The notes below the pieces were generated by a model that was given only the letters and a program-made list of their open reading frames with translations, searched no databases and was not told the origin of the DNA. This document shows, piece by piece, positions 25,601-43,061 of a DNA stretch of 64,000 nt; positions within the stretch are counted from its first letter, which is position 1, and each line of letters opens with the position of its first letter. A program made the translations under genes and the position numbers. Source of the DNA: a virus; the IMG/VR virus record IMGVR_UViG_3300030060_004277, positions 1-64,000 of that record; one strand, given 5' to 3'.

Positions 25601-28600
25601 CTTCCAAAGGTACTTCTGGAGAATAGGTAGTAATCATCAGGTGCATATTGCGTTAATCCCCTGTAGTTTTGCGCCTCTGAGCCTTGTGGTCCGTTCTTAT
25701 GCAGTATTGACCACCATGGTATGTTCAAGGTATACCCCGGAGTGGCGTCTGAGAACATGCTCGCATATGGAAAACCCCTTCTGGTGAATGATGGGGTCTC
25801 AGTTAATTGCACACCGAGTGGGTTGTATGACATCAGTGGTGGTACGTTAGTAAACTGACTACCGTGGTCGGGGCTGATATCGAGCATCACCTCGTTGACG
25901 AACACCTCGCATCCCCTGACGTCTGCTTGTACCTCCTTGGCTAGAACAAGCGCTAAACCACCTATTTTCGTACTTCTGCTTGAATCTCGCTTGATTCCAA
26001 CCACTGTGTTGACTTGTTGACTTGTCAGGCTCACGGTGCTGTCATAGTTGTGATAGCCCACTAATTGATTGGAGAAGACGTTGGGTTGTATGACAATTTG
26101 ATATGCGCCGACCTCAGCAGGGTCAGGGAAGTGCCTTTCCAACGTGTAATTGGCACTTGCCTCGAGAACTACTGTGTGCCCACCTAGTGAATTCATCGTC
26201 CCAGCGGTGCCTGAGGATGCTAGAACACCATAACCATCATATTTCACACCAGTCTCGAACATCAACGTGAACGCCCCTCCATGTATATCGCTGGGCGGCG
26301 ATGGAGCGGCGTTCACACCACTGAAATTTACCTCTGCTTCCAGCGGGTTGATGTTGTCCACCAACGAGGTGCCGAGTGATGTTTCCACCTCTGAGAGCAC
26401 GTTAGTTGAAGTTGTATGCTTGTTGAAAAGACCTGCGTCAAGGAAAGAGGTTGTCGAATTAAAATCAGCCAAATGACGCTCATACAGCGATTGATAGGCA
26501 GGATGAGCCCAGTGTCCGGGTAGCATCGGCATCGTCGGTGTGACGAAATGATGCCCCATTCTAGGGTAGGGCATTGGTGTCATCTGAGGTTCGCTGTATG
26601 CGTTGTGTGCAATCGTGTCACCAGCGAAGTAGAGGGTATGTGCCATATCAGGTGAGTTGCCGCTAACCTCTGCATGGTCCCTCATTCTTCTAGCGGCGAA
26701 GAATCTGGTTGAGCAGGCTGGCACGTAGTAGGATGGCACTACCTTCAGATTGGTGACCGTCTGCCCCGCCATGAAGTCAGCGAAGTCAACATCGCCCACA
26801 ACGGTCAGAGTCGCACTACCAGCACTGGTGTAAGAGCAAACTGCGCCCTCATCGGTCGTGGGGTTGTAGACTCTCAGGAACTTCCTGCTGTCAGCGACCT
26901 CCTTGGTGCCGAACCCAGCGTCTATGACTTTAGCGTCAGGCGTGTCGCTGACCACCAACTGACTGCTGCTCGGTGTCCAACTCACAACAGACAAGTCTTG
27001 ATTTTGCAGGCTACACGCACCGGAGGAGCCAAACGAGTGTGTGTATGTAGTAGGATACCGATGAGTGTGGGAGTGACCCATCTTAGTGACATGGAACAAC
27101 AGGGTCCTGTCATGTAGTTCGTACGAGGACTTGAGTGGGTTGTTGTTGTTCCAAGCGCCGACCTCGGAGTCGAAGGTCACTGGGTTGATTCTCTCCCAAT
27201 TGTGGTCCTCGTACGTAGGTGAGTTTCTGGGACCTGCTACTGAGTTGTCGAACAGGTGACCTATGTGAGTATCGCCGAGGTCTGGGTGTATCATACCACC
27301 AGAGCCCATCGTCTCATTCTGATAAGCCTGCAATGGGTCGAAGCCAGAGCGTACGACGATATTACCGGGTATCGAGTCTGGATTGGGTAGCATCACCTTT
27401 AGGTTGGGTGTGTTACCGCTGTTAGCCAGTGCTGGTGCCTTCCCGTTGGTGCCTCTGTCCGGTGGTGTCCTAAAGCCCCTGATGATTGTCCCCAGTGGGC
27501 TACCGCCCTCTATGACGTGCTCCTGCCCAGCGTCGTCTATGACTGTGATAGACTGGAACTGTATCTCCTCATTGGGGATGTTTAGCACGCTACCCACTGA
27601 GTAGGGGTTCTTCCTCATGAACTCAGGGTGGGATAGTTCCTGCGCTTGGAGCACTGGCATCATCGCGCTGTTGGTCGTCTCGAATGAGAACCTGACATTG
27701 CCGTACAACTTCTCGCCCGTCAGGAAGGCTGTGTCCGATGAGCCTGTCGTATCTACCCTAGTGACCCAAGGAACGGCACCGAGACCACGAGCGTTGATTG
27801 CTGGTAGTGACAGGTTGCCACCATCCATCCTCTTCCACACCACGTTCTCCACCGAGAAGTTCTTCGCAGGTGAGTTTTCGTACATCTGGAATGCGTTGAC
27901 GTCACCCATCCAATACTCAGTCGGATAGGCAACGCTGTTACCAGTGCTGGCTGTGTACGCTGTGCCTGTGTACTTATCAGCAGACACGTTCCTCTGAGCG
28001 TCACCACTCTCAAGCAAGGCAGAGCCCACGCTTCTATCTAGGTCGAAGAGTAGGTCACCGGTCTTGTTTAGACCCGGTGTAGCATTCTTCAGAAGCAGGT
28101 CATTGCTGGCTGATGTCGTATCGACGAAGGTCAGCGTACCGTTTGTGACAGACCCTCCCGTTGTTGAGGCGGATAGTTCGAACTCGGTGGTGCTGGTGAT
28201 GCTCGCTATGGTGGCACCTTCCGGTATGCCAGTCCCAATCACTCTCAGACCAACGATGATTTTGTCATCAGCATCATGCGTGATGGTGGGGTCGTCGTTG
28301 TAGTCACAGGTAGCGTTGGTGAATGAGAAGTTGGTGAAGAAGTCGGACGTGAGGGTATCGGTCCAATTCGCTCCTACCGTGCCTGTTGGCACTGCTGTGC
28401 CATCCACTATCAGAGCCTCGACGTTAGGACCGGCGTTTGCTGGTGCGATGTACCTGTCTTGGTCATGGAATCTGGGGTCGAATTGCGTAGTGCCAGCAGC
28501 GCGTATCTTGTTGCTGCTGGTGGTCTTGAGATGGAGCCAATCACCGTTGCACTGTATCAGGTCACGGTCGTACTTGTTCTTGAGTGCCGTCTCGCATTCG

Positions 28601-31600
28601 TAACTGACCACTAGGAAGGCGCTGGTGTACAGACCCTGTGGGTGTGTGAGTTCCTTCGGTAGGGTCGTCCTGTAGTTCGTGGGCGATGACCAGTGTGTGA
28701 CGCTGTTGGTGGTCGTATCACTGTCTTGGAAATAGGGACTCGATGTGCCTGTCGACCAACCGTCACCACTTGAGTCTGGGAAGTTGGTATAGAATCTGGT
28801 TTTGGTTAGAGCATCTGCTACGTTAGTGCCCAGACCATCCACGGGCGCTATGCTCTCCGGACTGTGCTTCATCGGTGCGACCACTGGCACTGAGCCATGC
28901 GTTGACATCACCGTGCCAGCGGTACCGTATGGCGAGAATGCCAGATTGGGATGATAGGCACCTAGACCAGCAGCGTAACCAGTGGTAGTGGTAGTGCTTG
29001 CGTTCTTGGTGGTGGAGACGGATATCTTGAGGCTGTTGAGCAAGGAGTACCTCTCGCCATGCCACCCCACTGCTCCGATTGGCCTCGTCCTGTCAATGGC
29101 ATCCGCGATGCCTGAGAAGTGAGCCTGTGTCATGTGGTCACGGGTGCTGTCGTTCTCGTTGTTGAAGCGTATCGTACCGGCCTTGGACCACACGAAGATA
29201 GTGGCATTGCTTGCTACTGTCGCGAAATCATCAGCGCTACCCCCTACATGGTCTTCCCAAGTCGCTATATCCTCGAACTCGTTCTTGCCCTCTATTCTGT
29301 TGGGTGCTAGGAAGAACTTGATGTCACCACTTGCGTTTATCTCCCTCGAGTGGTAACAGGCCCAACTCACGGTATTGCTGACATGGGCTCTCAGCCAGCC
29401 AGACGCTGGTATCTGCTCTGCTGTGACCTGATTGGGATTGCTGGTGTCGACTGTGATGAAATTGGTGGGTGCGCTTGATTGTTGCACCCCGCTCGATGAG
29501 GTTCCGACTGACACCCAGCCGTACCTGTCCTGTCTGAGGGAGTTGCCCATTGATGGCATGTGTGTGCCACCGAGCGCCTTCAGTGCCCCAGCACCGGGGA
29601 AGGTGTTGATGGCCGCACCCAGAATGGTGGCGAACTCCTCGCCGTTCTGACAGCGCGTCGCATCTACCACTATGTACTCCATTTGGGCGTGGGCAGTAGT
29701 CACTGAATCAGATGAGCCTGTGTAGTTCAGTGTCTTGTTCAACATGGTCCCCGATACCCTGAATGCCGCTGGGTGTATCTGGTCTCCCCTAGGCCACGAC
29801 GTGCCGTTTATTCTGTTATTACTACTAGCAGAGGGATGTGGTGGGTTGAATGTGATTTGATTGTCCATCCAGTGACCGCCGGGATGGAAGCCACCATCCA
29901 TGTGCCACACCGTATCAGCGGCCATCGCTATGCCGTATGCTATGACAGGGGTGTGCATCTTCGGATGTATGGGCAATAGGTCGGTAGCGTGATGCGGTGT
30001 AGCGTCACTGAACTGCTGACCGTAGTGCCTACCGTGAGCGGGTCTCTGTAGGAACTTCCCTTTCATGCAGTACCCGGCTGGCGTCTCCCAGTTGACCATC
30101 GTTCTCCAGTGGAATCCAGCAGTGTCGTTGTAACGGGTCTTGCTCATGGGGCCGAACGTGTACTTGTCGTTGTCGATGGAGTTCGGGAACAGTAGATTGG
30201 ATTGCGTGTCACTGTCAGGCACGGAGGCCCAAGTCGAATTGTTGGTCGCCGTGACTATCAGGCCGGGATTGGGCTCGAACTTGTTACCAGCGTCTACGCT
30301 GGAGTGTGCTAGACCATTGCTGTCGTTGACCTCCCTAGTGAAGGGGAACGCCTGACCCGGCCCGAATATGACATACGTGGTCTTGTTCTCAGTGCCATCG
30401 ATGTGGTCCTCGTACCTCGCCGTGGGGTGTGGGAACCTGAGGACTAGGGGAGTGGGCTTGGCAGTGATTATGTCATTCGACAGCACTGAGGTCTTGTTCA
30501 AATCAGGAGCAAGCACGTTGTCCTTGTTGAATGCTGGTGGTGTGATGCTACCACGGTGTTGGTTGCAAAGCGCTGCACCGGGGAAGAATGCGAACATTGC
30601 ATTGGTATCGAGCATTGCGAAACTGGTGGATATCTCGCTTGCGTTCTGTATGCCTGAGACTCCCGTAGGCCCATTGGCATAAGGGTGGGTGTAGAACGAG
30701 GAGTAATCGTTCTGAGTGCCGTCATTGACGTCAAGCGTAACACCACTGAAGCCACCGCCGAAGTACAATGGCACGCTGTGGTCACGACTTCTCTTACCGC
30801 CCTTGAACATGACAACAGGTTCTGAGAATACGCTACCGACGGAGCGCAGTCCATCGAACTTCCGGGTGTGTTCCCTATCCCCCCACTTGGACCATAGGTA
30901 GTCAACGCTTGCTGATGGGCTACCACCACCGCCGGTGTGATGGGTGTCGAAGTCATCGGAACCCGTGTCTGCTACCCACTCCAAATCATACGCATCGGCA
31001 GTGGATGCTGTGGCGCTGGTCGTGTTGTAACGTAGTTCTGCTGTTGTGTTTATGTCTGGGGAGAGATACACCCTCGCTCTCTCGTTTGCGGGTTTCAGTA
31101 CCACATGTGACTGGTAGTATGGAATCAGGAAGTCCGTGACGTCCTGTGCGGTGTTGTTCACATTGGCTCTGAGTCCACCCGCTTCGTCAGTAAGGAGTTG
31201 CGGGTTGTCTATCTTGGGCAGTATGTGGTCTCCCGATGAGCGTGTGAATGATATGCCCTTCAGTCCCTCCCTCCACTTCTTGATGCTCACTGGAATGTTG
31301 CTGGAGTCTACAAGAACCGGTGTGGCTGTGTTGCTGTTGGGTCCTCTCGCAGCAGTGCGTATCTGTAGTAGAGTGTAAGGTATGTAACCGCAGTCTATGT
31401 TACGGCTCTTGTCTATGTCAGCATCCGACACTGCTCTTGAGGTGCCGAAAGCATAGCCAACTGAGCCTGTTGGTCTCAATGTCTTCTCCAACTCACCGAA
31501 CTCCAGATGCGCGGCTTTGATTCCTTGGTCGGGATGGAGAGTGGCTGAGAATGATGTGTTGAGTGGCCGTAGCGTCTTGTTTGGGTTGTAGGCCCTGATG

Positions 31601-34600
31601 GTGATTGCGGTTGGGCTGACGCCCCACTCACCAAAGGTCCTACCATCTGCTGCATACATGTCAGTGCAATCGAACTTGAGTCCCTCTGCTGAGTTTATGA
31701 TGTTGCCAGCATTGACAGCAGCAGCGGTCACAGCAGCCATGAGTTCGTCAGTGACTAGACAAGTCCAGTTAGGCCCAGCGGATATGAACTCGCCACCATT
31801 GCCACTGATTGTCGCAAGTTCTGTGGATGTGAATCCCTCGACGTCGTAGAATTTGTCTCCCTCCCTTCTGCTGTAGGACGCCACATATCCTAGGTGGACG
31901 TCATCGGCGGGTGCCACGGTGAGTTTCCTGCCATGAATGTGTATGACGCCGTTCTCCTTGGGGAAGCCGTAGTACCCGAGTATGTCTATGTCACTGGACA
32001 TATGGGAATAGGGTCTTGCATGTGTGATAGTCAGTGTCGTGCCTGAGAGACTGAGCCCACCACCATCCAATCCAACCGATGAGCCTACCGCTATGGTAGC
32101 CTCCGGTGATGGTACGCCTCTCCACCTACCGCCCTTCCAAGCGTGCTCTGTGACTGTAGGCACTGCTCTTGCCGTGCCAGTTCCAGAACCAGCCCCAGTT
32201 GCTACGAAGAACGTGCCCACGTTGCTATCAGCAGCACCCACGGTGGTGAAATCGGTGCTGCCTGTGCTTACTATTCTATAGCGGTGACCTGTGACGAAAC
32301 CACCAGCAGTGTCTACGTTGGTAAGACTGCTATCGCCGTAATCCACCGCCATTCTGCCTGTGGAGTCTCCTGAGCCGAACATGTGCTTGCCTATCGTGAA
32401 GCCACCTTGTGAGGTATCACGGTCATCGAAGAATACGCAGACTTCATCGTCTATCGTGTTCGGTAGGATTGTGTTTTCATTCGAGAAGGACTCGCTCACT
32501 TGCTTGTAGACGTATCTTACTCCGAACTCGTCTCCGGTGTTGTCCTTGAATCTGAATCCGAAGACCTGTCCGCTGCCTATGTTGTCAGATAGTTTGTCAG
32601 CACTAGGCACGTATGAGCCATAGGAGCCTGTTGACTTTCCATACCTGTTGTTGAACCCCCTCTCGTTCACCTTGCCGAAACCCCATGTACCAGCATTGGG
32701 CGCCCATCCCGGCACACCTGTCGCTACTAATCCGCCGAAGTTGACTCTACCAGTGGCTCTCGACCCTACTCTGAGTCCCTTGGTCAGTGTTGAAGATGAA
32801 CCCTTGACGTCAAGAGATTCTACGTTGATTGTGTTATGGCTTTTACCGCTGATGGAATCGGACACCGCTCTGAGCACAGTGTCATCCTCGAAATCAGAGA
32901 CGCTATGCACGTCCTCACCGCTTTCCTCTGCTGTGATGTACTGACGTAGAGTGGTGATTGGTGCGAATGGTCGACCATGCTTGTTCAGTGGCATTGGTGC
33001 TGGATGCATGTTCTCACCCTCGTTCTCTTCCGGTAACGCCCAGAAGTTCCTCCACCTCCCACCATGTCCTATTAGGAACTCAGGCTCGTACGTGTCTTGA
33101 CCAGTGCTGTTGTCCAACCATACGCAGAAGTTACGGCCCGTTGCCCCCGGAACCGTGCTGTGTACGACTATCGATACACCGGTGTCTCCTTTCAGGTCCT
33201 GAACTTCCCTGCCTATGTGTGCTCTGACGTATCCCATGTGGGTGCCCTTGTTCTTGTCATCCACATGCCAGAAGGGAGAGGGGTCATGTGCTGAGCCGTT
33301 GTTGGTTCTAGCAGTTAGGGCACCGTGTTGATTGATGAGCCTGACTACTTCCTCAGCGGCTTGTCTGATATTGACAACACCTTCCCTGTTCTTGACCTCA
33401 CCCATATCGATGGTGAGTCTTCTGACGAAGTCCATGTCCTTCCACTCAGGGAGGTGCTGCAACCTGCTCTCCTCATGCGAGGTTAGGTCCAATGACTCTG
33501 CTCTGATTCCCCTGAGGCACAGGAAGGCGGGTATCACCCTCGTGCCATCTGGTGTGTCGAAGAAGGTGGATGGGTCCCTGAGGTTGTATCCGGATGATGA
33601 TGTGGATTTCCTGTGTGTGACGAGCGCTGATGTGAAGACATCAGACGAATCCAATGGGATTCTTGTCAAGAAATGAAGCGTGTCCGCCACTTCACTCAAA
33701 GACGCACTGTCATTGGTTCTGGGCACTGTGCTGTAACCGTGTCTCAGTCCATCGACAGTGCCACCGAGTGAGTATTCCGTATGCACATGATGACCGTGGG
33801 CCTTGCCGTAAATCCTGACGCTGGTGTTATCCCTGCCATCGGTCGGTAGTTTGTAGGTCCCAGTTGGAACTGTGCTTTCCAACAGGTCGCTTGTCTGTCT
33901 GTTGGCTAAGTCATGTGCGTATGCGCTCTCTATGAACTTTGATTGCTGTGTACTCCTGATGTATGGGTTCTGTGAGAGGTATCCGTTTGTCACGTCTATC
34001 TGAGTGGTCCATGGGCTAGGAGCGGAGCCAGCGTATTGCGCATTTAATTTGTAGAGGGATGTCCTGCTTGTACCACCTGTGTCAACGACTTCCTTTCTCC
34101 ACCCCAACTGCGTGGCCTCGGGACTCGTCTGCACTTGCATGAAGATGTCTTGGAATGCGATGAACTCCCTGTCATGTGCCACGTCGTATAGCAGGACCCG
34201 AGCATGGTCCGCAGTGAAAAGATAGGGGTCTGTGTAAGCGATAGTGGGCGCTTGTGAGGCAGTGAGGCCCAGTGCTAGGTAGTTCTCCTCTATCGTCCTG
34301 TTGACGTGTTGCACGTAGTTTCTAGCAGTCTCTAGGCAGTCATTACCAATCAGGAAGTTCTCTATCGGGGTGCTGTCTCTCGGTGAGTCGCTCAATGAGC
34401 CCGAGCCTCCAGTGAACTCGGACCACACTTGTGACTCGTCATACACGCCTCTGCTCTTAGCGAATAGTCCCTCAACGGCATGTGGATTGTTGTAGGACAT
34501 ATTAGCCCATATCGTATCGCCGTTACGGAGTCCACCGGGTGCGTATGGGTTCAACCACTTGGCATTGAGTATCGCATCTCTGTCCTCATAATCACCCATT

Positions 34601-37600
34601 GCCACTGCTAGTTTCGCGTTGGATGGTATGTCTGGCGCATTGCCCGAAAGATGTATTGTGCTACCATCGACTCTAGTGACAGTCCCTATCTTCTTGATTT
34701 CATCAGTCGTGGTATCAACATAGTAGTATACCTCGTCATCCTTCTTGATGTTCATACCATGTAGGTTGTGTAATGTCTTCTTTCCTAAATCACTGCTGTC
34801 TATTTCTACGTAGGCTCTCGCGGTAGAACTGTAGGCAGTAATACCGAGAGAGGTATCTATGTGCATGTTGTTGAAGAGTTCCCTGTATACCACACCACCG
34901 TCGTAGAACGTCTGACCGGTGCCGAAGGCAGAGGTCTCCCTTATCACTCTCGCAGCCTTTCTGCTCAATGTGATTTTCTTTCCGACCAAGGAGGTGGGGT
35001 TTGTTCCTACTGCTGTGGTGTACGCTAGTGTTATGCTGTTATCAGGCGTGGTGACAGAGCCAATGGTCTTGAGATTGCCATGGTAGTGGTATCTGTGTAT
35101 GGTGCTACCATCATTGTACTGAACCTCGTAGATGAGTTCTCCCTGCTCCTTTGGCGCGTTGGCGATGTCGTCATAGCCTAGATTGGGGAACCTAGCGAAG
35201 TCCTCTGGACTGAGAGTGAGGGTGAGAGCGAACTCGCTGTTGCCTAGTGATGTCTTGAGTTCGCTCAGTGGTTTCCCAGTTGCTCTCTTTACCTCTACCT
35301 TGGGTGCGTGTGGATTGCTCTCGGGACCAGCCTTGAACTCCACGGCGGTGACATATTGCCTGAGGCCGTAATCGACGTTTCCTCCCTGTGTCTTTACACT
35401 AGCAGCGTCATAGTGGTACTCGCTCCTACCTTCGAAATCCGATGACGGTGTGAACTCGTCAGATGAGATGACGTCTATATCACTGTCAAGAAGGGGGCCA
35501 CCCAAGAACACAGAAGCACCGGTTTGAAGCGAATCGAGGAAGCCATCGGTAATGGCATAGAGCCCGCTGATGACCCCCGGCTCTCCGATTCTTATCGAGC
35601 CGTTGGTGTAGTCGATGGATGAGTACCAAGCCCATTCTCCAGTCGCTGTGAAAATCTTCCTGTATCTTCTGTGTGAGGTACCATGGTACTTCGCGTTTGT
35701 CTTAGTGGGAGCAGGGAAGACATCGATGTCATTTAGATACAAATCCAGACCATTCGTCACATCTCCCTCTATCTTGGTGATGTAAGTGGACTTGACGAAC
35801 TCCCTCTTCTCTATCGCGAAGGAGTACGCGGAACTCGCCTCCCTGTCAGTCGGTGGCCTGCTCTTGAATCTCCTACCGACTGGTGAGGGGTTGTACGTGT
35901 GTGCGGTATGCGTGGCATCGACATGAATCTTGAATCCGTTGTCAGGACCCACTGTGCTCTTGAAGAACTGGTTAGTGAAGAGCGGTATCTCGGCAATCGC
36001 TCTGGTGCTGGCGTATTGAGTGCCGAGTTGGTAGTCGTGTGACACGTCATTCAGAGCCTGATGCATCCTGTCATTCACAGTGCTACCATTCTCTATATTG
36101 GACTCATCACCGAAGTCAGGTTCGCTGAAGACAGTGAAGTTGCCGTAAATCTCAACAGCACCACTCGTATCACCCACCATCAACCCGGTGGCGTTCAGTA
36201 TCTCACCTATCGAAGTGTACTCACTCCCTGATGCGCTTATGAAATCACCAGAGCCCAGTGTGGACAATGTGAAGGTGAAAGTGGTTCCAGACTTGCTGGA
36301 GTACTTGGCACTGCTACCGTCTGGTAGGTATATCCTGCCGTATCTGGGAAAGCCATAGGTGCCCCAACTCGCTAGGTCTTCCGAGTTGTTGTTGAGTGGT
36401 TCGACGAGAAGCGTGCCCGTGCCTGTGCTGAAATCCATATCCAGTTTGACTGCTTCAACAGCATATGCCCTACGAGTGGAGTAGGACTCGTGTGCCAGCA
36501 TGCTCTTCTGATACACCGGTTTGGTGTCCATGGCCCCTTGACCGGGTCCACCTAGGGTAACCGTAACCACTGGTGCGTTGGGCTCTATCTCCTTGACTAT
36601 GTGGGAGTCAGGGCTTCCAGTGCCTACTAGGTCCACATTCCTAGATGCAGCAGACTCAGAGAGACCAACACAATTAATCACGGTGTAGTTGCCCCTATCA
36701 GCGGCATCATTCTCCCTTACGCTTCTGACTCTGGCCCTGCTCAGCAGACACATTATCCTGAACAAGGAAGGATTGTTGGTTGAGGCGCTTCTGTCAATGT
36801 AATTGCTGAGTTGGTTTGTCCTTCTTCGGTCACTAGGTTGCACCACCAGCATCATGTTGGATACGCTACCATCGGGTATGGCCACGTTGTCTATGATATC
36901 GAATACCTCGTGTGTGTTTGAGTATGACGGGGTTATGGCAGTGTCAAACTGACCGGCTGATGGAGAGCCCACCACAGTGTCCGGCTCGACCCTGCTGAAG
37001 TCACCCTTGTCAGTCAGGCTTACTCCCGCTGAGATTTTAGGGAAGGAGACCATGTTGAACACTGATTCATGCGAGCCATCCACACTAGTGGAATCCAATA
37101 TGACAGATGGTGTGATGTTCTGTGAGGCGTCATCTGCCCTAGGTGTGTAGTTTGCTGGTGATAGCGTCTCATCTATGTCAGTGTCCGCTGAGTAACCCTC
37201 GCTGTTGTCACCAATCAGACCATGAGGTTGCAACATGTTGCTGGCGCTCTGTAAATCACCAGCGTTGAACTCTAGTATGCCACCAGCAGCGTAGAGCGTC
37301 TTACCTGATGATAGCGAGTCGACTATGGCATCGTAGATGAAGGACCCTGCTCCAGTGGACACATCGGATGCAGGCACTGTCTTTTCAACCATCAGCATGG
37401 GGTAGTATGGTCTCGCAGTGCCAGTACCAGAGCCAGTCCCCGTTGCATTGAATATGGTTCCAACATTGCTGTCACTAGCACCTATAGATGTGAAATCGGT
37501 ATTGCCTGCACTGACTATGATGTATGTCGTGCCTGAGACGAATGACCCCCCAGTGACTGTTTTGTGCATGCTTGCGCCAGTTAGGTCTACGGCGTTGTAG

Positions 37601-39537
37601 TGTATCTCTACGTAAGGAGCGAACTTGACATTGGTTGACGTCAGTTGGGGAACGTGAAGCAGTGCGACTCTGCTCTTCTTGGAGGGTCTCAGATAGTGCT
37701 TTCTGATGTCGCTCTCATACTTATCACCTAACCTAGGCACTGGGCCCTTTAACGCAAATGGCCTGAAGTCGAAACTGGGACCGCCGATTGCTATCAGTTT
37801 CCTCTTGCCAGTAGGAGGACTGTTCGTATCCTGATAGGAGTTGACGGCATGTGTCACAGTTGCTGTGTTGGTAACTCTGTTCGCTGCTATGGGATTCAGG
37901 TCCCTATACACGTCCACCCTGCTGTTGATTGGTACCTGATGCTCTACGCCTTTCTGCATCTGGTCATAGACTATGTCTATCAAATCCGCTTGACCATCGC
38001 CCTTGAGATTCACTATCTCATCATTGGCATCAGGTAGCATTCTCAAATAGGAATGACCATCGACGTGGTTCTTCACATGCCTTCCGCTGTGACCTATCTG
38101 GAACTCCGTAGGCACATCAGCATACCAAGAGACCGCGAATGGATTGTCAGTGTCGGTGTCAGTGATTGACATCCTCGATGAGTAGACCAGCCCATGCACA
38201 GCATAATCGCTCTCATCTATGACCATCTGCCCTGTTCTGTCTACCATCTGCGTAGAGAAGTGAGGTGGTTGAAATGGCTTGCCGGTCCCTGAGTCTACTA
38301 GTAGGTCTGCGCCGATTACAACAAAGTAGTCATCAGAGTCAGTGGTTCTGTTTTTGTTCAGGACGCCAATCAGCCCATCATTAGCCACACCCCTGTTATG
38401 GTCCAAGTGAATGCTGGAGACGGTGAGAGTCGCTGTCCCGAACATCGTGTTTATCGAATGTAATCTCACTCTCTCTGGTGGTGAGCCATTGGGCTTCTTC
38501 GTCTTTCGGTCTATCGAATTGGGGTTGATGAGGAGGTTGTATGGTACGTGAGGAATGTACTTGTTGCCATCGCTATGATGCACTATGGTGTATTTTCCGG
38601 AACTGTACGGGGATGCTGTGAAGTCCACGTTGCCACCTGTGAAATTGCTGGTGGTCGCTGCTTTGCCAGTAAGAGCCGTCGCTAGGGCTTGAGCGTCACT
38701 GGCGCTTATGCTCATGGTGCTTAGACCACTGCTGGTGTAGTCGTTGGTGATTGATGTGAATGATATCTCATTCTCTATTGGTGATATGGGTTCCTCGAAC
38801 CTATAGAGGAGCATTGTGGTATCGTCTTTCAAAGGGGATTTGCCATCTATCATCCCCTCTTTGAAAGCGGCTTTGATATGCACTGCCTCCATTACACCCC
38901 TGAACTGACCTCCCTTGCCTCCGATGTAGATGTTGGAATTGGATTGAGACATTCTCTTCGGTCTGTCCTTGAGGCTCTTCTCCGCCATGAGTTCTCCATT
39001 GACATAGAGTTGTATCCCCTTCTGTCTCACTGCTGCTACTACGTGTAGAAGTTGCCTGTGGTTCTTGTTCAAATCAGTCGCATTGCCATACGTGCTCGTA
39101 TCGAATCTGTTGTAAGAGTCATGGATGCCCCCGAAGTTGGAGGCTGGGTATACTGTACCCTCAAATCTGTTGGAGGTTTTACTACCTGTGGTTATCTCAT
39201 GGTACTCGTCTTTGCTACCATTATTGAGGTAGATACCGAAGGTCGCCGGTCCGGGCGTGTCTATGTTTCCCACCGTGAGTTTGAACTGACCCTCCTTCTC
39301 TACGACAGTGCCACCACAGTCAGGCATCAACCAAGTCTCGATTACTATCTCGTTGGTGTACCTGCCTGAGGTGATTGACAAATCCGGATTTGGATTGCTG
39401 TCATCCAGTATCTCCCTCATGCTGGTATTGCCCTGAGCATCCCTGAAGCCAATGATGGGAGAGCCGTCGGGAACCAGTATGCTATCGCTCACACCATCGA
39501 AGAAGAATGCATGATTGGTGCGACTGATAACTGACAT
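22636..39537 (-). CDS. Giant (5633 aa) virion tail protein with N-terminal LamG/concanavalin A-like domain
   Basis: Uninterrupted 16.9 kb ORF. FFDGVSD...ETW...HVVA...LYVNG...IYIGG...FRG LamG pattern. Lies in the tail module. Confidence 0.8.
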   Translation of the reverse strand: MSVISRTNHAFFFDGVSDSILVPDGSPIIGFRDAQGNTSMREILDDSNPNPDLSITSGRYTNEIVIETWLMPDCGGTVVEKEGQFKLTVGNIDTPGPATFGIYLNNGSKDEYHEITTGSKTSNRFEGTVYPASNFGGIHDSYNRFDTSTYGNATDLNKNHRQLLHVVAAVRQKGIQLYVNGELMAEKSLKDRPKRMSQSNSNIYIGGKGGQFRGVMEAVHIKAAFKEGMIDGKSPLKDDTTMLLYRFEEPISPIENEISFTSITNDYTSSGLSTMSISASDAQALATALTGKAATTSNFTGGNVDFTASPYSSGKYTIVHHSDGNKYIPHVPYNLLINPNSIDRKTKKPNGSPPERVRLHSINTMFGTATLTVSSIHLDHNRGVANDGLIGVLNKNRTTDSDDYFVVIGADLLVDSGTGKPFQPPHFSTQMVDRTGQMVIDESDYAVHGLVYSSRMSITDTDTDNPFAVSWYADVPTEFQIGHSGRHVKNHVDGHSYLRMLPDANDEIVNLKGDGQADLIDIVYDQMQKGVEHQVPINSRVDVYRDLNPIAANRVTNTATVTHAVNSYQDTNSPPTGKRKLIAIGGPSFDFRPFALKGPVPRLGDKYESDIRKHYLRPSKKSRVALLHVPQLTSTNVKFAPYVEIHYNAVDLTGASMHKTVTGGSFVSGTTYIIVSAGNTDFTSIGASDSNVGTIFNATGTGSGTGTARPYYPMLMVEKTVPASDVSTGAGSFIYDAIVDSLSSGKTLYAAGGILEFNAGDLQSASNMLQPHGLIGDNSEGYSADTDIDETLSPANYTPRADDASQNITPSVILDSTSVDGSHESVFNMVSFPKISAGVSLTDKGDFSRVEPDTVVGSPSAGQFDTAITPSYSNTHEVFDIIDNVAIPDGSVSNMMLVVQPSDRRRTNQLSNYIDRSASTNNPSLFRIMCLLSRARVRSVRENDAADRGNYTVINCVGLSESAASRNVDLVGTGSPDSHIVKEIEPNAPVVTVTLGGPGQGAMDTKPVYQKSMLAHESYSTRRAYAVEAVKLDMDFSTGTGTLLVEPLNNNSEDLASWGTYGFPRYGRIYLPDGSSAKYSSKSGTTFTFTLSTLGSGDFISASGSEYTSIGEILNATGLMVGDTSGAVEIYGNFTVFSEPDFGDESNIENGSTVNDRMHQALNDVSHDYQLGTQYASTRAIAEIPLFTNQFFKSTVGPDNGFKIHVDATHTAHTYNPSPVGRRFKSRPPTDREASSAYSFAIEKREFVKSTYITKIEGDVTNGLDLYLNDIDVFPAPTKTNAKYHGTSHRRYRKIFTATGEWAWYSSIDYTNGSIRIGEPGVISGLYAITDGFLDSLQTGASVFLGGPLLDSDIDVISSDEFTPSSDFEGRSEYHYDAASVKTQGGNVDYGLRQYVTAVEFKAGPESNPHAPKVEVKRATGKPLSELKTSLGNSEFALTLTLSPEDFARFPNLGYDDIANAPKEQGELIYEVQYNDGSTIHRYHYHGNLKTIGSVTTPDNSITLAYTTAVGTNPTSLVGKKITLSRKAARVIRETSAFGTGQTFYDGGVVYRELFNNMHIDTSLGITAYSSTARAYVEIDSSDLGKKTLHNLHGMNIKKDDEVYYYVDTTTDEIKKIGTVTRVDGSTIHLSGNAPDIPSNAKLAVAMGDYEDRDAILNAKWLNPYAPGGLRNGDTIWANMSYNNPHAVEGLFAKSRGVYDESQVWSEFTGGSGSLSDSPRDSTPIENFLIGNDCLETARNYVQHVNRTIEENYLALGLTASQAPTIAYTDPYLFTADHARVLLYDVAHDREFIAFQDIFMQVQTSPEATQLGWRKEVVDTGGTSRTSLYKLNAQYAGSAPSPWTTQIDVTNGYLSQNPYIRSTQQSKFIESAYAHDLANRQTSDLLESTVPTGTYKLPTDGRDNTSVRIYGKAHGHHVHTEYSLGGTVDGLRHGYSTVPRTNDSASLSEVADTLHFLTRIPLDSSDVFTSALVTHRKSTSSSGYNLRDPSTFFDTPDGTRVIPAFLCLRGIRAESLDLTSHEESRLQHLPEWKDMDFVRRLTIDMGEVKNREGVVNIRQAAEEVVRLINQHGALTARTNNGSAHDPSPFWHVDDKNKGTHMGYVRAHIGREVQDLKGDTGVSIVVHSTVPGATGRNFCVWLDNSTGQDTYEPEFLIGHGGRWRNFWALPEENEGENMHPAPMPLNKHGRPFAPITTLRQYITAEESGEDVHSVSDFEDDTVLRAVSDSISGKSHNTINVESLDVKGSSSTLTKGLRVGSRATGRVNFGGLVATGVPGWAPNAGTWGFGKVNERGFNNRYGKSTGSYGSYVPSADKLSDNIGSGQVFGFRFKDNTGDEFGVRYVYKQVSESFSNENTILPNTIDDEVCVFFDDRDTSQGGFTIGKHMFGSGDSTGRMAVDYGDSSLTNVDTAGGFVTGHRYRIVSTGSTDFTTVGAADSNVGTFFVATGAGSGTGTARAVPTVTEHAWKGGRWRGVPSPEATIAVGSSVGLDGGGLSLSGTTLTITHARPYSHMSSDIDILGYYGFPKENGVIHIHGRKLTVAPADDVHLGYVASYSRREGDKFYDVEGFTSTELATISGNGGEFISAGPNWTCLVTDELMAAVTAAAVNAGNIINSAEGLKFDCTDMYAADGRTFGEWGVSPTAITIRAYNPNKTLRPLNTSFSATLHPDQGIKAAHLEFGELEKTLRPTGSVGYAFGTSRAVSDADIDKSRNIDCGYIPYTLLQIRTAARGPNSNTATPVLVDSSNIPVSIKKWREGLKGISFTRSSGDHILPKIDNPQLLTDEAGGLRANVNNTAQDVTDFLIPYYQSHVVLKPANERARVYLSPDINTTAELRYNTTSATASTADAYDLEWVADTGSDDFDTHHTGGGGSPSASVDYLWSKWGDREHTRKFDGLRSVGSVFSEPVVMFKGGKRSRDHSVPLYFGGGFSGVTLDVNDGTQNDYSSFYTHPYANGPTGVSGIQNASEISTSFAMLDTNAMFAFFPGAALCNQHRGSITPPAFNKDNVLAPDLNKTSVLSNDIITAKPTPLVLRFPHPTARYEDHIDGTENKTTYVIFGPGQAFPFTREVNDSNGLAHSSVDAGNKFEPNPGLIVTATNNSTWASVPDSDTQSNLLFPNSIDNDKYTFGPMSKTRYNDTAGFHWRTMVNWETPAGYCMKGKFLQRPAHGRHYGQQFSDATPHHATDLLPIHPKMHTPVIAYGIAMAADTVWHMDGGFHPGGHWMDNQITFNPPHPSASSNNRINGTSWPRGDQIHPAAFRVSGTMLNKTLNYTGSSDSVTTAHAQMEYIVVDATRCQNGEEFATILGAAINTFPGAGALKALGGTHMPSMGNSLRQDRYGWVSVGTSSSGVQQSSAPTNFITVDTSNPNQVTAEQIPASGWLRAHVSNTVSWACYHSREINASGDIKFFLAPNRIEGKNEFEDIATWEDHVGGSADDFATVASNATIFVWSKAGTIRFNNENDSTRDHMTQAHFSGIADAIDRTRPIGAVGWHGERYSLLNSLKISVSTTKNASTTTTTGYAAGLGAYHPNLAFSPYGTAGTVMSTHGSVPVVAPMKHSPESIAPVDGLGTNVADALTKTRFYTNFPDSSGDGWSTGTSSPYFQDSDTTTNSVTHWSSPTNYRTTLPKELTHPQGLYTSAFLVVSYECETALKNKYDRDLIQCNGDWLHLKTTSSNKIRAAGTTQFDPRFHDQDRYIAPANAGPNVEALIVDGTAVPTGTVGANWTDTLTSDFFTNFSFTNATCDYNDDPTITHDADDKIIVGLRVIGTGIPEGATIASITSTTEFELSASTTGGSVTNGTLTFVDTTSASNDLLLKNATPGLNKTGDLLFDLDRSVGSALLESGDAQRNVSADKYTGTAYTASTGNSVAYPTEYWMGDVNAFQMYENSPAKNFSVENVVWKRMDGGNLSLPAINARGLGAVPWVTRVDTTGSSDTAFLTGEKLYGNVRFSFETTNSAMMPVLQAQELSHPEFMRKNPYSVGSVLNIPNEEIQFQSITVIDDAGQEHVIEGGSPLGTIIRGFRTPPDRGTNGKAPALANSGNTPNLKVMLPNPDSIPGNIVVRSGFDPLQAYQNETMGSGGMIHPDLGDTHIGHLFDNSVAGPRNSPTYEDHNWERINPVTFDSEVGAWNNNNPLKSSYELHDRTLLFHVTKMGHSHTHRYPTTYTHSFGSSGACSLQNQDLSVVSWTPSSSQLVVSDTPDAKVIDAGFGTKEVADSRKFLRVYNPTTDEGAVCSYTSAGSATLTVVGDVDFADFMAGQTVTNLKVVPSYYVPACSTRFFAARRMRDHAEVSGNSPDMAHTLYFAGDTIAHNAYSEPQMTPMPYPRMGHHFVTPTMPMLPGHWAHPAYQSLYERHLADFNSTTSFLDAGLFNKHTTSTNVLSEVETSLGTSLVDNINPLEAEVNFSGVNAAPSPPSDIHGGAFTLMFETGVKYDGYGVLASSGTAGTMNSLGGHTVVLEASANYTLERHFPDPAEVGAYQIVIQPNVFSNQLVGYHNYDSTVSLTSQQVNTVVGIKRDSSRSTKIGGLALVLAKEVQADVRGCEVFVNEVMLDISPDHGSQFTNVPPLMSYNPLGVQLTETPSFTRRGFPYASMFSDATPGYTLNIPWWSILHKNGPQGSEAQNYRGLTQYAPDDYYLFSRSTFGSIGNQLTINGYTSTYIDIYSNIRNNISINPKSTVVSFSNASGKVQISNSNTFPISPYYSQVVEYIGKNGVRYTKELVSRSGAVNDVNQGDYLQLQAGSDAFWNNIYDGAIVRLSYKYDTLPAGEIFTNRQKSVFAHILPDIIDGNQDTNNGFLPDAFICMWHPNLGRPNTYFSDSRTTLSGNSIDKSPYNSIPEHFETIHYHDFSHVISTGPFDFLIKTPKNTRTGEVTSGDSDHDVGGTNVMLSGFWPCGSRGGAHASRLDVYSYASSSWNLHATTDNCNFSSASNNEWTDADDDGSYSLSSGLAVGSMGGTRRRPYGYRNAVRQANNKPRYGVNPVRFQHENTANVEGNNTTDYEAGPLVQIESSAWGWSGNSTNDSTFPTTYVGVMERLTNFTGMLGHDQANLQVRYSDGRRMTRPFGTPVRTLRNPSGVERDWWGDLEGKGLTSLSVAAQYYLVDWWGNERGEAVRRAPVRGFGIRPSWDCGNAYEEDRTNSRTPYRRIWNNGKPIYNLKGIVNFSNGNVSVTSGNTVPRFGGVLNNANNNDANNLVDVFAPTHSLRVGDMGNGRGVRYPTMFNEDKLTELSSPVHTTGLVLSHNTAEPLFGNGLVRPRDDVLGADEVPRGISARLGIAENGLLKPEAVVSDRIEDIVGTSVHKDPISRTSPRIGVDADTVEGVEQHHIAINTEAHSLHTDRGVGQRVILEGGSQVKTSAVSTLTDVEYDALSFARQSSSHSTLSSAYKFSHTGAFRPYGGSYIMETRSYAGLFDDTGWGVGSLTGATSTSNPYQDTTSYSSDSVRNNESDSVVEFMLRPIRVLDKNHIEVFRFHNFLVDGTSPQYDANYYYCTSGGRYGLFTYKVENGRTGTNNIPTSRSLPDGNGPYIPVYVIVPDNSTTTPNSQGPKIPGAGVTGYDVTSLETPVSRLVISENTLQHHRSDAPRRRQEEQSDDKLRRIDYTIRPRFSQALHNKGHDGDVSYNVTEHSGDGS

Positions 39538-40866: not shown

Positions 40867-41865
40867 TCACCTCGGTGCGTATCTCGCTCCCCCAACTGCA
40901 CGGGCAGTCTCCTCCTGAATCATTCTCCCTATCTCCGTTGCGAGGGCCCTCTTGTCCGACCTGTCCGTGATGCCACCTGCATTCACTGTGATGTTGAATG
41001 TCTGCGATACTCCACCTGAGACCGTAGTCCCACCACCACCGCCTCCGCCCCCAGTGACTAAGTCACCGACTGCTCCGGCTGCCGAACCAACAGCGCTTCC
41101 TGCTGCTTTGAAACCAGCCTTGACGCCTCCGAATATCTTTCCACCGACCTTGGCAGATAAATCGACTACTTTCTTGAGACCATCTATGATACCATCTAGG
41201 ACGTTACCGAGGAAGTCTATCACAGGACCGAGTGTTGCATCATAGATATTGGACATGCCTTTCATGACCGAGTCCCATGCACCTAGTAGACCATCTAACG
41301 CTACTGAGCCTATATTGACAAAACCGTCCCATAACGGTGATACCACTCTGTCCCATGCTCCTTGAAGCAAGTTGACGAATCCACCCCATGCCTTTCCAAG
41401 AAGGGCCATTGCACTTGAGCCAAGACCCTCAATCTTATCCCAGAGCGGTAAGACGTAATCCTCCCATAATCCCTGCATCTTGATTACCATGCCACTCCAG
41501 TCTCCGGTCAGGAAACTGTAGACCATTGAGGCATAATCCTTGAGAAACGAGAATATCGGGATAATCACTCCGTTGAAGATGTCTGCCATTGTGTTGACAA
41601 CCGCCATGAAACCGCTTTTTATGAACTCGAACACAGGTAGAGCAATCTCCAATAGTTTCTCAAACAGAGGCTTGACATGCTCGTCGAAGACTTCCTTCAT
41701 CTTCATGAAGGCCTTCTGCGCGGCTGTTGCTGCCAATGAGAATGCGCCAGAAAGAAGCGAGCCTATGCCGGATGCTATACCACCAAGGCTGCTCATGCTC
41801 CCACCGATGGATTTGAGCAATCCCTGTACCATGCCCAGTGATGTACTCAGTGCTCCCAGTGCCAT
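40867..41865 (-). CDS. Short tape-measure-like protein
   Basis: Amphipathic helices with periodic W/F residues; follows the frameshifted chaperone pair. Confidence 0.65.
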   Translation of the reverse strand: MALGALSTSLGMVQGLLKSIGGSMSSLGGIASGIGSLLSGAFSLAATAAQKAFMKMKEVFDEHVKPLFEKLLEIALPVFEFIKSGFMAVVNTMADIFNGVIIPIFSFLKDYASMVYSFLTGDWSGMVIKMQGLWEDYVLPLWDKIEGLGSSAMALLGKAWGGFVNLLQGAWDRVVSPLWDGFVNIGSVALDGLLGAWDSVMKGMSNIYDATLGPVIDFLGNVLDGIIDGLKKVVDLSAKVGGKIFGGVKAGFKAAGSAVGSAAGAVGDLVTGGGGGGGGTTVSGGVSQTFNITVNAGGITDRSDKRALATEIGRMIQEETARAVGGARYAPR

Positions 41866-42158
41866 CAGAAGTCCTCCTGATGTAGGAAGTCGTAGTCGAA
41901 GGTGACAGTCTCATTGCTGGTGCTGTTTTCCATCTCTTGTCTCTTCTGCGCTTTCCTTTCCTCGTCCTCGATGGCGAGGGCCCAGATGAGTGATTGTTTG
42001 AATACGTCCTCCCCCATACTGTACACCTCGTTCAATGATACCCCGTAATGTTTTGCCACGATGTAGGCGAACAACTGATTCTGCAAGTCTATGTCTTCAG
42101 TGGATTTTATTGTCTTCCTCTGTAAGAATTGCTGAACCTTCAGTTGTTCGCCTTCGTA
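41865..42158 (-). CDS. Tail assembly chaperone T-like frame, expressed as a G-T fusion by -1 frameshift
   Basis: Open -1 frame from the slippery site: YEGEQLKVQQFLQRKTIKSTEDIDLQNQLFAY... Confidence 0.75.
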   Translation of the reverse strand, partial: YEGEQLKVQQFLQRKTIKSTEDIDLQNQLFAYIVAKHYGVSLNEVYSMGEDVFKQSLIWALAIEDEERKAQKRQEMENSTSNETVTFDYDFLHQEDF

Positions 42159-42164
42159 AAACCC
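42065..42164 (-). other. Programmed -1 ribosomal frameshift signal: G GGT TTT plus 14-bp stem
   Basis: Heptamer at 42164-42158. Stem arms 42153-42140 and 42078-42065 are perfect reverse complements. Confidence 0.8.
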
Positions 42165-42502
42165 CCTTGCATTGCCTCCGCCAGTTCATCTGGCTTAGGT
42201 AGCAACGCTGCTATCTGTTGGCCTGCAAAGGCGTTGATTTGCATTAGTTCGTTCGTGCTTAGTTCTGGATTAGTCTTTACGACCCATTCCGAGAAAGCGT
42301 GATTCCAATATCCTTCCAAATCCAATGAGACGTCATTTCCGTCCATTAGAAACATATTCTGTGCTGCTTTCTGTACGTCAAAGAACGTGATGTCTCGAAT
42401 CCAGATTTCCATGATTTGCTCAGGGTCATCCGGGTCGACCTTAATCTCGTGCTTCTGTTCATTCTTCTTCTTCAGTATTGCTTGTTTCTCCACTATCGGC
42501 AT
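42140..42502 (-). CDS. Tail assembly chaperone G-like
   Basis: Between tail tube and tape measure genes; ends GGF-TKANN at the slippery site. Confidence 0.75.
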   Translation of the reverse strand: MPIVEKQAILKKKNEQKHEIKVDPDDPEQIMEIWIRDITFFDVQKAAQNMFLMDGNDVSLDLEGYWNHAFSEWVVKTNPELSTNELMQINAFAGQQIAALLPKPDELAEAMQGGFTKANN

Positions 42503-43061
42503 TTTGTGTCACTTCCTCGGTTGCAGCCTCTTCTTCAGAGGGGGCATCCGACGAGTCATCAGCAGCCACTTCTTCAGCGGGGGCTTCAGCCTCGTCTTCG
42601 TCTGGTTCGACTGGGTCTTGTGTTAGGCCTTCGTCATCTCTCCTGAGACGCAGAACGACCTCTGCTTTGGTGCCTCGAACAGTTATTCCCCTGCTCTTGC
42701 ACTCTTCTCTTAGTTCTGCTACTGTCATTGAGTCATAGTCAGTGTCAGCGAATGGATTGTCTTGTGGTGCTATGGTCTCTGTGACTTCCTCAGTCTCTTC
42801 GACCTCCTCGACCTCTTCGACCTCTTCGACCTCTTCGACTGCCTCTAAGGTCTCTTGTGCAGCCTCTACCCAAGGGGGCGTCTCCACTTTTGGGTGGACT
42901 TCTATCGCTGATAGGACAGCCATGTCAATATCCTCCCTCGTTCTCAAAGTAACGTACGAGGGTCTCATCGGCATGTCGACTTTACTGAGAAGCCAAGAGA
43001 CGTAATCCACATGAGAAACTCGATTGTAGTGCTGCACTCTCTCTAAATCTTCTGGCCACAT
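42459..43061 (-). CDS. Acidic SAP-domain protein
   Basis: YDSMTVAELREECKSRGITVRGTKAEVVLRL SAP motif flanked by Glu-rich tracts. Confidence 0.8.
   Translation of the reverse strand: MWPEDLERVQHYNRVSHVDYVSWLLSKVDMPMRPSYVTLRTREDIDMAVLSAIEVHPKVETPPWVEAAQETLEAVEEVEEVEEVEEVEETEEVTETIAPQDNPFADTDYDSMTVAELREECKSRGITVRGTKAEVVLRLRRDDEGLTQDPVEPDEDEAEAPAEEVAADDSSDAPSEEEAATEEVTQNADSGETSNTEEEE
42795..42839. repeat. 9-bp tandem repeat x5 (CTCTTCGAC) encoding (VEE)n
   Basis: Read directly; one unit has one mismatch. Confidence 0.9.

Follow-up and report, generated by a model that had tools for sequence, protein, structure and literature searches.

Overlapping reading frames upstream of a tape measure gene

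The stretch of DNA analyzed here, called the window below, comprises positions 1–64,000 of the IMG/VR virus record IMGVR_UViG_3300030060_004277 (full record 91.6 kb, CheckV completeness 85%) and carries on its minus strand, directly upstream of a tape measure protein gene, two overlapping reading frames, which are predicted to specify a tail assembly chaperone in a short form, G, and, by programmed −1 ribosomal frameshifting, in a longer form, GT (Table 1). The open reading frame (ORF) of G begins with ATG at 42502 and ends with CAA GGG GGT TTT ACG AAG GCG AAC AAC TGA, the stop lying at 42142–42140. In the slip run of the window, GGGGGTTTT, G_GGT_TTT is phased as X_XXY_YYZ; the overlap has no other canonical heptamer in phase. 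Since the −1 frame is closed by a TGA at 42188–42186, being open from 42185 until the TGA at 41867–41865, the change of frame is confined to 43 nucleotides (nt). The predicted GT fusion has 212 residues, namely G residues 1–115 followed by 97 more, with the junction ...AMQGGFYEGEQLK and the predicted G–T junction peptide ...AEAMQGGFYEGEQLK; the stop of T overlaps the start of the tape measure gene as TGATG. A frameshift at this place, with a fusion product of about 212 residues, had been proposed in an earlier reading made from the letters alone (the sequence-only reading), and the end of the 120-residue ORF, the heptamer and the length predicted for the fusion are all borne out by minus-strand reading and translation.

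Table 1 Features of the predicted frameshift cassette and the adjacent gene, in window coordinates.
Feature	Position	Strand	Basis and remarks
G-like tail assembly chaperone ORF, 0 frame, 120 aa	42140..42502	-	strand reading and translation
GGAGG, Shine-Dalgarno-like, candidate upstream stimulator	42175..42179	-	10 nt 5' of the heptamer
Slippery heptamer G_GGT_TTT, P-site GGT and A-site TTT in the 0 frame	42158..42164	-	strand reading
Stem arm 1, 14 nt, core 42151-42142	42140..42153	-	strand reading, fold, alignment; encloses 0-frame stop
Stem loop, 61 nt	42079..42139	-	internal helices predicted, register not conserved
Stem arm 2, 14 nt, core 42076-42067	42065..42078	-	alignment, covariation; encodes Q-L-F-A of T
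T region, -1 frame	41865..42164	-	conserved from the junction onward; AlphaFold (AF2) model a helical bundle
Tape measure protein gene, 332 aa	40867..41865	-	matches 12 PHROG tail-length tape measure families, best E = 2e-12

Conservation of the slip run

Relatives of the cassette were collected by two scans of IMG/VR, the second of them a profile scan, which together gave 118 loci with 44–94% amino-acid identity to each scan's own query. Distinct loci were drawn from these in sets of 82 (counts of codons, of GGAGG and of the codon overlapping the G stop), 74 (slip-site variants), 44 units (tree) and 30 (stem alignment). The 78 homologues of G are nearly all 117–123 residues long, and every scorable locus among the 118 keeps a −1 ORF that reaches 221–281 nt past the 0-frame stop. 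No relative of G was found in the INPHARED phage collection, and Rfam gave no match at the frameshift site.

The codons GGG-GG[G/T]-TTT are present in 80 of the 82 distinct loci, the remaining two (L080 and L081) reading GGG GAT TTT, and the GGG and TTT codons are each kept in all 82. In this genome GGG makes up 11% of the Gly codons and TTT 13% of the Phe codons; conservation of the protein sequence Gly-Gly-Phe cannot account for the choice of such rare codons, but selection acting on the slippery run itself can. The heptamer singled out by the sequence-only reading is less constant than the run that contains it: GGG GGT TTT was found in 29 of 74 distinct loci, whereas GGG GGG TTT is commoner (44 of 74; 7 after G, giving the canonical G_GGG_GGG, and 37 after A) and GGG GAT TTT occurs once (L080), so that in-phase canonical heptamers amount to 29 + 7 of 74. 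The conservation that had been expected of the heptamer therefore holds for the G-run and T-run but not for G_GGT_TTT as such, which is clade-limited. To judge from these sequences, what the slip sites share is a tetramer suited to slippage of a single P-site tRNA, either G_GGG or U_UUU; in the clade of the window the two tetramers stand in tandem and form a classical two-tRNA heptamer. G_GGU_UUU has been ranked among the most shift-prone heptamers on mammalian ribosomes (PMC5009743).

Two groups of relatives deserve separate mention. Loci in the range L039–L118 (e.g., L046, L048 and L077), at 45–55% identity, have GGG GGG TTT after A and lack a consistent downstream structure, and many of them have GTGA at the stop, that is, a −1-frame GTG overlapping the 0-frame TGA. 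In L080 and L081 the slip run is broken (CAG GGG GAT TTT, Gly-Asp-Phe) and only the U_UUU tetramer is left, with the downstream stem kept as 10 bp + 3 bp and with a G-C covariant.

Expression of the −1 frame

The T protein aligns across the family from its first residue onward. Past the 0-frame stop, codon positions 1 and 2 of the −1 frame are conserved, and the changes on the clade tree fall on position 3. Over the 82 distinct loci the −1 frame shows no conserved start-capable codon ahead of an invariant ATG at codon 47, which lies midway through the T fold; a conserved start belonging to the downstream ORF itself, which the sequence-only reading had named among the observations that would speak against frameshifting, is thus absent from the region in which it would be needed.

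T might instead be a separate protein, made by termination at the G stop and reinitiation at the −1 codon NUGA overlapping it. This codon is GTG, TTG or ATG in 52 of the 82 distinct loci, which makes reinitiation conceivable as a second route in some of these viruses, and an overlapping stop and start is used elsewhere in the genome, e.g., between T and the tape measure gene. CTG takes this place in the window and 16 other loci, and CTA in a few, yet T is conserved there too, so that for the window this route is rated low. It is further disfavored by the lack of a Shine-Dalgarno (SD) sequence at a suitable distance, by the beginning of the T sequence and of its first helix upstream of the overlap codon, and by the invariant rare GGG and TTT of the slip run, which it leaves unexplained; moreover, the T part of the corresponding protein pair of phage lambda is not known to function unless tethered to G. 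Altogether we regard reinitiation as very unlikely to be the source of T in the window.

Still less probable is slippage of RNA polymerase on the G5T4 run, by which a small share of the mRNAs would gain or lose one base. A conserved run of 9–10 G and T residues is what such slippage would use, and by our own reckoning a one-base realignment of the nascent RNA would be mismatched only at the G/U boundary. The runs known to cause transcriptional slippage are longer homopolymers, however, and the conserved GGAGG and stem flanking the run suit a ribosomal mechanism. Two contigs assembled from RNA-Seq libraries (Logan), X15 and X17, span the slip run without an indel, X15 (151 nt) being identical to the window over 42036–42179; because contigs hide rare variants and RNA-Seq libraries may contain DNA, this is weak evidence against transcriptional slippage, and gaps in the RNA cover by contigs carry no information. 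From sequence comparison, no other account of how the −1 domain is expressed comes near a −1 shift in the G-run/T-run, and we consider it very likely that such a shift makes GT.

A covarying stem downstream of the slip run

The sequence-only reading had also described a perfect 14-bp stem with a 61-nt loop, beginning four nt after the heptamer and enclosing the 0-frame stop, and this description holds letter for letter, arm 1 (AGGCGAACAACTGA) being the exact reverse complement of arm 2 (TCAGTTGTTCGCCT). The loop is coding, and its length is constant for that reason. In the whole 64-kb window this is the only separated-arm inverted repeat of ≥13 nt within 150 nt, as compared with a chance expectation, by our own arithmetic, of ~0.04 such 14-mers per window. 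Folding of the mRNA, proposed earlier as a check, gave −37.6 kcal/mol for the 121-nt RNA vs −21.3 ± 2.9 for its shuffles (z = −5.6), with none of 200 shuffles as good.

In a gap-free alignment of 30 distinct sequences of closer relatives (A1, 170 columns), RNAalifold independently yields a 10-bp core that pairs columns 52–61 with 127–136, corresponding to 42151–42142 with 42076–42067 of the window. Over A1, 88% of the cells of the 14 stem pairs are paired, vs 26–37% when the 3' partner is slid by 1–3 columns, and the stem beat the shuffle control in 500 of 500 trials both for paired cells and for the covariation score. Covariation is seen at the adjacent column pairs 59–129 (AU17, GC8, GU4) and 60–128 (CG14, UA11, UG3); both changes are synonymous swaps of Gln/Leu codons in the −1 frame, CAA CTG becoming CAG TTG in one arm and the reverse taking place in the other.

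In a tree of the 44 distinct units built with the stem columns masked, the compensated forms AACT/AGTT and AGTT/AACT fall in several separated clades. The swapped form is found in the L004/L100/L005/L006 clade, the L020/L022/L027/L031 group and L080/81, which sit among the clades of the window, L008, L088, L007 and L101 that carry the window's form; G-U intermediates at the covarying pairs are present in L033/34, L037, L009/19 and L032. When the observed number of arm-2 changes was placed on random branches with matched state frequencies, the observed degree of pairing at the two covarying pairs had P = 0.025 (43 of 44 paired) and P = 0.003 (40 of 44), respectively. An independent-pairs sign test (treekit) was not significant, being underpowered with 3–6 independent contrasts. 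The third positions of the Leu and Phe codons in arm 2 show one change each on the tree vs 5–11 for neighboring codons. We take the stem to be a selected RNA structure because of the covariation with G-U intermediates together with this suppression of synonymous change.

Selection for pairing extends over part of the family. In members whose arm 1 reads GCGA[AG]CA, down to ~55% identity (L088, L080, L101, L110), the nt at +6 to +15, counted from the slip run, are paired with a probability of 0.9–1.0, vs 0.5 at control positions of the same genes. The full 14 bp are limited to the window and its nearest kin, and the conserved core leaves a spacer of 6 nt. Of the conservation and covariation that had been anticipated for the stem, therefore, the 10-bp core and two covarying pairs were recovered in the clade of the window, whereas the outer pairs do not extend beyond its nearest kin and the stem as a whole is missing from the relatives at 45–55% identity. 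As the latter keep the frameshift architecture without it, the stem appears to be a lineage-specific modulator that the family can dispense with.

Two other structures were considered and rejected. A downstream structure common to the whole family is not tenable, since the local hairpin of L040 and the 6-bp long-range stem of the L068 group are no better paired than controls. The 6-bp outer helix UUACGA/UCGUGG, which appears in the single-sequence fold, is lost in the ACC relatives and would lie inside the ribosome.

The frameshift could also be real, with slippage depending solely on the G-run/T-run as in lambda G–T, and the stem have another role: it might stabilize the mRNA, govern termination at the UGA that it encloses, or set the pace at which ribosomes enter T and the tape measure gene. 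That distant members without the stem retain the G/T overlap would fit such a role, as would the enclosure of the 0-frame stop and of the NTGA overlap codon and a spacer of only 4 nt before the full stem. The conserved core, however, begins 6 nt after the heptamer, the classical position of a stimulator, nothing comparable exists elsewhere in the 64-kb window, and the stem-bearing clade is the clade that mostly has the canonical heptamer. A role other than stimulation is therefore rated improbable, though less so than either of the routes to T discussed above, and the stem probably acts as a frameshift stimulator.

An upstream SD-like element

An element missing from the earlier account of the site is the GGAGG located upstream of the heptamer, which is conserved more widely than the stem: at the same offset, GGAGG occurs in 63 and GAGG in 73 of the 82 distinct loci, clades without the stem included. 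The Glu codon within it is GAG in 81 of 82 loci, with no third-position change on the clade tree vs 4–10 at other Glu codons, and the Ala codon preceding this GAG is GCG in 61 of the 71 cases in which Ala stands at that position, vs 18% in general use. SD-like stimulators of −1 shifts work 9–14 nt upstream of the slip site, as in dnaX and many insertion sequence (IS) elements (PMC5009743). The virus itself uses SD-led initiation, as may be concluded from the GAGGTGA-like motifs found 5–10 nt before 28 of 38 ORF starts in the window (background, 20%) and from the AGGAGG located 7 nt before the ATG of the tape measure gene. Given its spacing and codon conservation, GGAGG may act as a stimulator, a tentative assignment that we hold with appreciably less confidence than that of the stem; by analogy, the combination of GGAGG, slip run and stem suggests a dnaX-like three-part signal. 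As an observation in its own right, the window contains 88 copies of GGAGG on the coding (minus) strand vs 41 on the other strand.

The G and T proteins

The AF2 model of G, computed from 32 homologues, has a pLDDT of 83.6. Its best named match among the predicted structures of BFVD is the tail assembly chaperone of Haloarcula hispanica tailed virus 2 (HHTV-2; E = 1.4e-5, TM 0.64), followed by chaperones of Bacillus, Salmonella, Proteus and Vibrio phages and FS-gp41 of Mu, several of the phage chaperones matching at E = 1e-3 to 1e-1. In the model of the T region, a helical bundle with a pLDDT of 85.6, the first helix already begins at residue 2. The C-terminal ~15 residues of T (window 41868–41910, minus strand) are predicted to be disordered and yet carry the family-conserved motif [LF]DYxFLxxE[DE]F, which may be a docking peptide for the tube protein. 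The sequence-only reading placed the site in a chaperone just before a tape measure gene, and the matches of the downstream gene to tape measure families and of the G fold to the HHTV-2 chaperone agree with this. The reading of G/T as a chaperone pair of the G/GT type, placed immediately before that gene, is supported.

A T homologue of 92 residues and 63% identity has been deposited as a stand-alone protein (BFVD A0A1B1IU58); filed as a separate ORF, it indicates that the public annotation of these viruses misses the frameshift.

The virus and the neighboring genes

The window encodes a family B DNA polymerase, a PD-(D/E)XK nuclease, a thermosome-type (group II) chaperonin (window 7552–9045, plus strand; Cpn60_TCP1, E = 7e-123) and a head module with large terminase, portal, S78 prohead protease and HK97-type capsid protein. 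The same set of genes was described by Philosof et al. for magroviruses, which they assigned to marine group II archaea, thermosome genes being typical of magrovirus groups A and D (PMC5434244). The magrovirus origin presumed in the sequence-only reading fits this gene set, and a magrovirus-type tailed-virus genome is supported by the sequence. From the magrovirus literature, and by analogy, we infer an archaeal host of marine group II and hence translation on archaeal ribosomes.

Two ORFs near the cassette may be noted. Two genes downstream of the tape measure protein, which has only 332 residues, lies a single ORF of 5633 residues (window 22636–39537, minus strand). Just upstream of G, a 200-residue ORF (window 42459–43061, minus strand) overlaps the start of G by 44 nt, contains a SAP domain at residues 108–143 (Pfam, E = 3.4e-12) and has a very acidic C-terminus, which makes it an odd neighbor at the place expected for the tail tube gene. 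Apart from this domain, neither the 200-residue ORF nor a 687-residue ORF upstream of G gave an informative family match in Pfam or PHROG.

Predicted mechanism of the frameshift

Taken together, the evidence favors a G/GT cassette in which a −1 slip takes place on the heptamer, with the stem probably enhancing the shift and GGAGG possibly adding to it, and we assign to this combined reading a probability of about 0.75. In the predicted mechanism, most ribosomes would translate the 120-residue G and terminate at the UGA at 42142–42140, and a minority, the P site occupied by GGU and the A site by UUU, would slip back by one base on G_GGU_UUU, whereupon the Gly and Phe tRNAs would re-pair on GGG and UUU and reading would continue in the −1 frame to give the 212-residue GT. 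The core stem, starting 6 nt after the heptamer (4 nt for the 14-bp form), would stand at the mRNA entrance of a ribosome positioned on the slip site and may cause it to pause. Pairing of GGAGG, 10 nt upstream, with the 16S rRNA tail of the elongating ribosome might add tension, as it does in the dnaX gene of E. coli. If the analogy with lambda (PMC5009743) holds, the tape measure protein would be coated by G and by the G portion of GT, and the T part would recruit the tail tube subunit.

As to the order of events, our own view is that an old, weak G-run slip site with GGAGG may have come first, and that later, in the lineage of the window, a GGG-to-GGT change would have produced the tandem heptamer and the stem would have been gained. 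It follows as a speculation, which we consider rather unlikely in its full form, that the cassette represents a natural three-part recoding signal on archaeal ribosomes, with GGAGG paired to the anti-SD sequence and the stem blocking the mRNA entrance, in which the G:GT ratio has been tuned by adding heptamer and stem to an older, weaker G-run site. If true, it would give a first sign that archaeal ribosomes, like bacterial ones, scan the mRNA with their anti-SD sequence during elongation; we know of no report of an SD effect at this stage in Archaea. Living relatives would then also preserve the steps by which a frameshift stimulator evolved.

Several observations weigh against the combined reading or parts of it. 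The non-canonical A_GGG_GGG_UUU of 37 of the 74 distinct loci means that tandem slippage is not the universal mechanism in the family. Concerning the stem, the relatives at 45–55% identity keep the overlap without it, with pairing, apart from scattered local hairpins, no higher than at control positions; the full 14 bp begin after 4 nt, less than the usual spacer of 5–9 nt; and the covariation comes from two neighboring pairs and a small number of independent events. The A-E-A peptide, within whose codons GGAGG falls, is itself conserved, and Glu is encoded by GAG in 71% of cases anyway, for which reason part of the conservation of GGAGG is to be attributed to the protein level. The identity of the proteins is affected as well: a Foldseek search of the PDB with G gave nothing significant, the HK97 chaperone 2ob9 appearing at E = 6.3, and no Pfam or PHROG family was found for G or T at E ≤ 0.01, phrog_9001 being touched by only 2 of the 32 T homologues, at E = 0.011. 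Finally, the putative host is uncultured.

Comparison with known systems

The predicted cassette is worth comparing first with gpG/gpGT of lambda (slip site G_GGA_AAG) and of other long-tailed phages, in which, too, the tape measure gene is immediately preceded by a pair of overlapping ORFs, the latter of them read in the −1 frame and having no start of its own, and with which it shares a slip site beginning with G_GG and a predicted short G and longer GT. It differs from them in having no detectable sequence family in common, in its heptamer G_GGU_UUU, in the archaeal host inferred for it, and in the presence of a covarying downstream stem and an upstream GGAGG; to our knowledge, lambda needs no such stem or GGAGG element. 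G/GT frameshifting is conserved in long-tailed phages, and what is known of tail assembly is left unchanged by the present analysis.

With the signals of E. coli dnaX and the IS elements, the site has in common an SD-like element, a heptamer and a 3' stem, the distance of 10 nt for GGAGG lying within the range of 9–14 nt (PMC5009743). In contrast to those signals, the stem of the window closes a 61-nt coding loop rather than forming a compact hairpin, the heptamer is not A_AAA_AAG, and the elements are candidates predicted from the sequence.

Among archaeal viruses, a frameshifted G–T has been predicted for the haloarchaeal tailed viruses HVTV-1, HCTV-1, -2 and -5 (PMC5009743, PMC8211752), a group to which the best named structural match of G, the HHTV-2 chaperone, also points. 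The slip site of those viruses is another one, they infect haloarchaea rather than the marine group II presumed here, and in the two papers no stimulatory structure is cited for them. A −1 shift in a capsid gene has also been described for methanogen viruses (PMC11375127). In magroviruses, which are among the most abundant archaeal viruses of the surface ocean (PMC5434244), neither a tail chaperone nor a frameshift is mentioned in PMC5434244 or PMC11706807. Since frameshifted tail chaperones had been predicted for haloarchaeal viruses, the novelty anticipated in the sequence-only reading is reduced; what stands of it is the scarcity of characterized cases, −1 frameshifting having been predicted, among archaeal viruses, only for a few haloviruses and fucA1 of Saccharolobus solfataricus being the only experimentally reported example in Archaea (PMC8211752).

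In fucA1 a −1 shift takes place on archaeal ribosomes, at a heptamer followed by a putative downstream stem-loop (PMC1616953), whereas that gene is cellular, its heptamer is of another kind, and the shift serves to restore one enzyme, not to fix the proportion of two products. Against this background, two aspects are modestly new: a putative stimulatory stem that is supported by covariation and accompanies the predicted frameshift of a tail chaperone, and an SD-like element that may act as a stimulator in an archaeal context. The comparison also brings a gain in annotation, since names can now be given to G/GT and to the tape measure gene of these viruses, and it provides, within a compact cassette of 170 nt, more than 100 natural variants with canonical and non-canonical slip runs, stems present or absent, and compensated stems. 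The family described here appears to contain one lineage that has added a putative stimulator to an older slip site.

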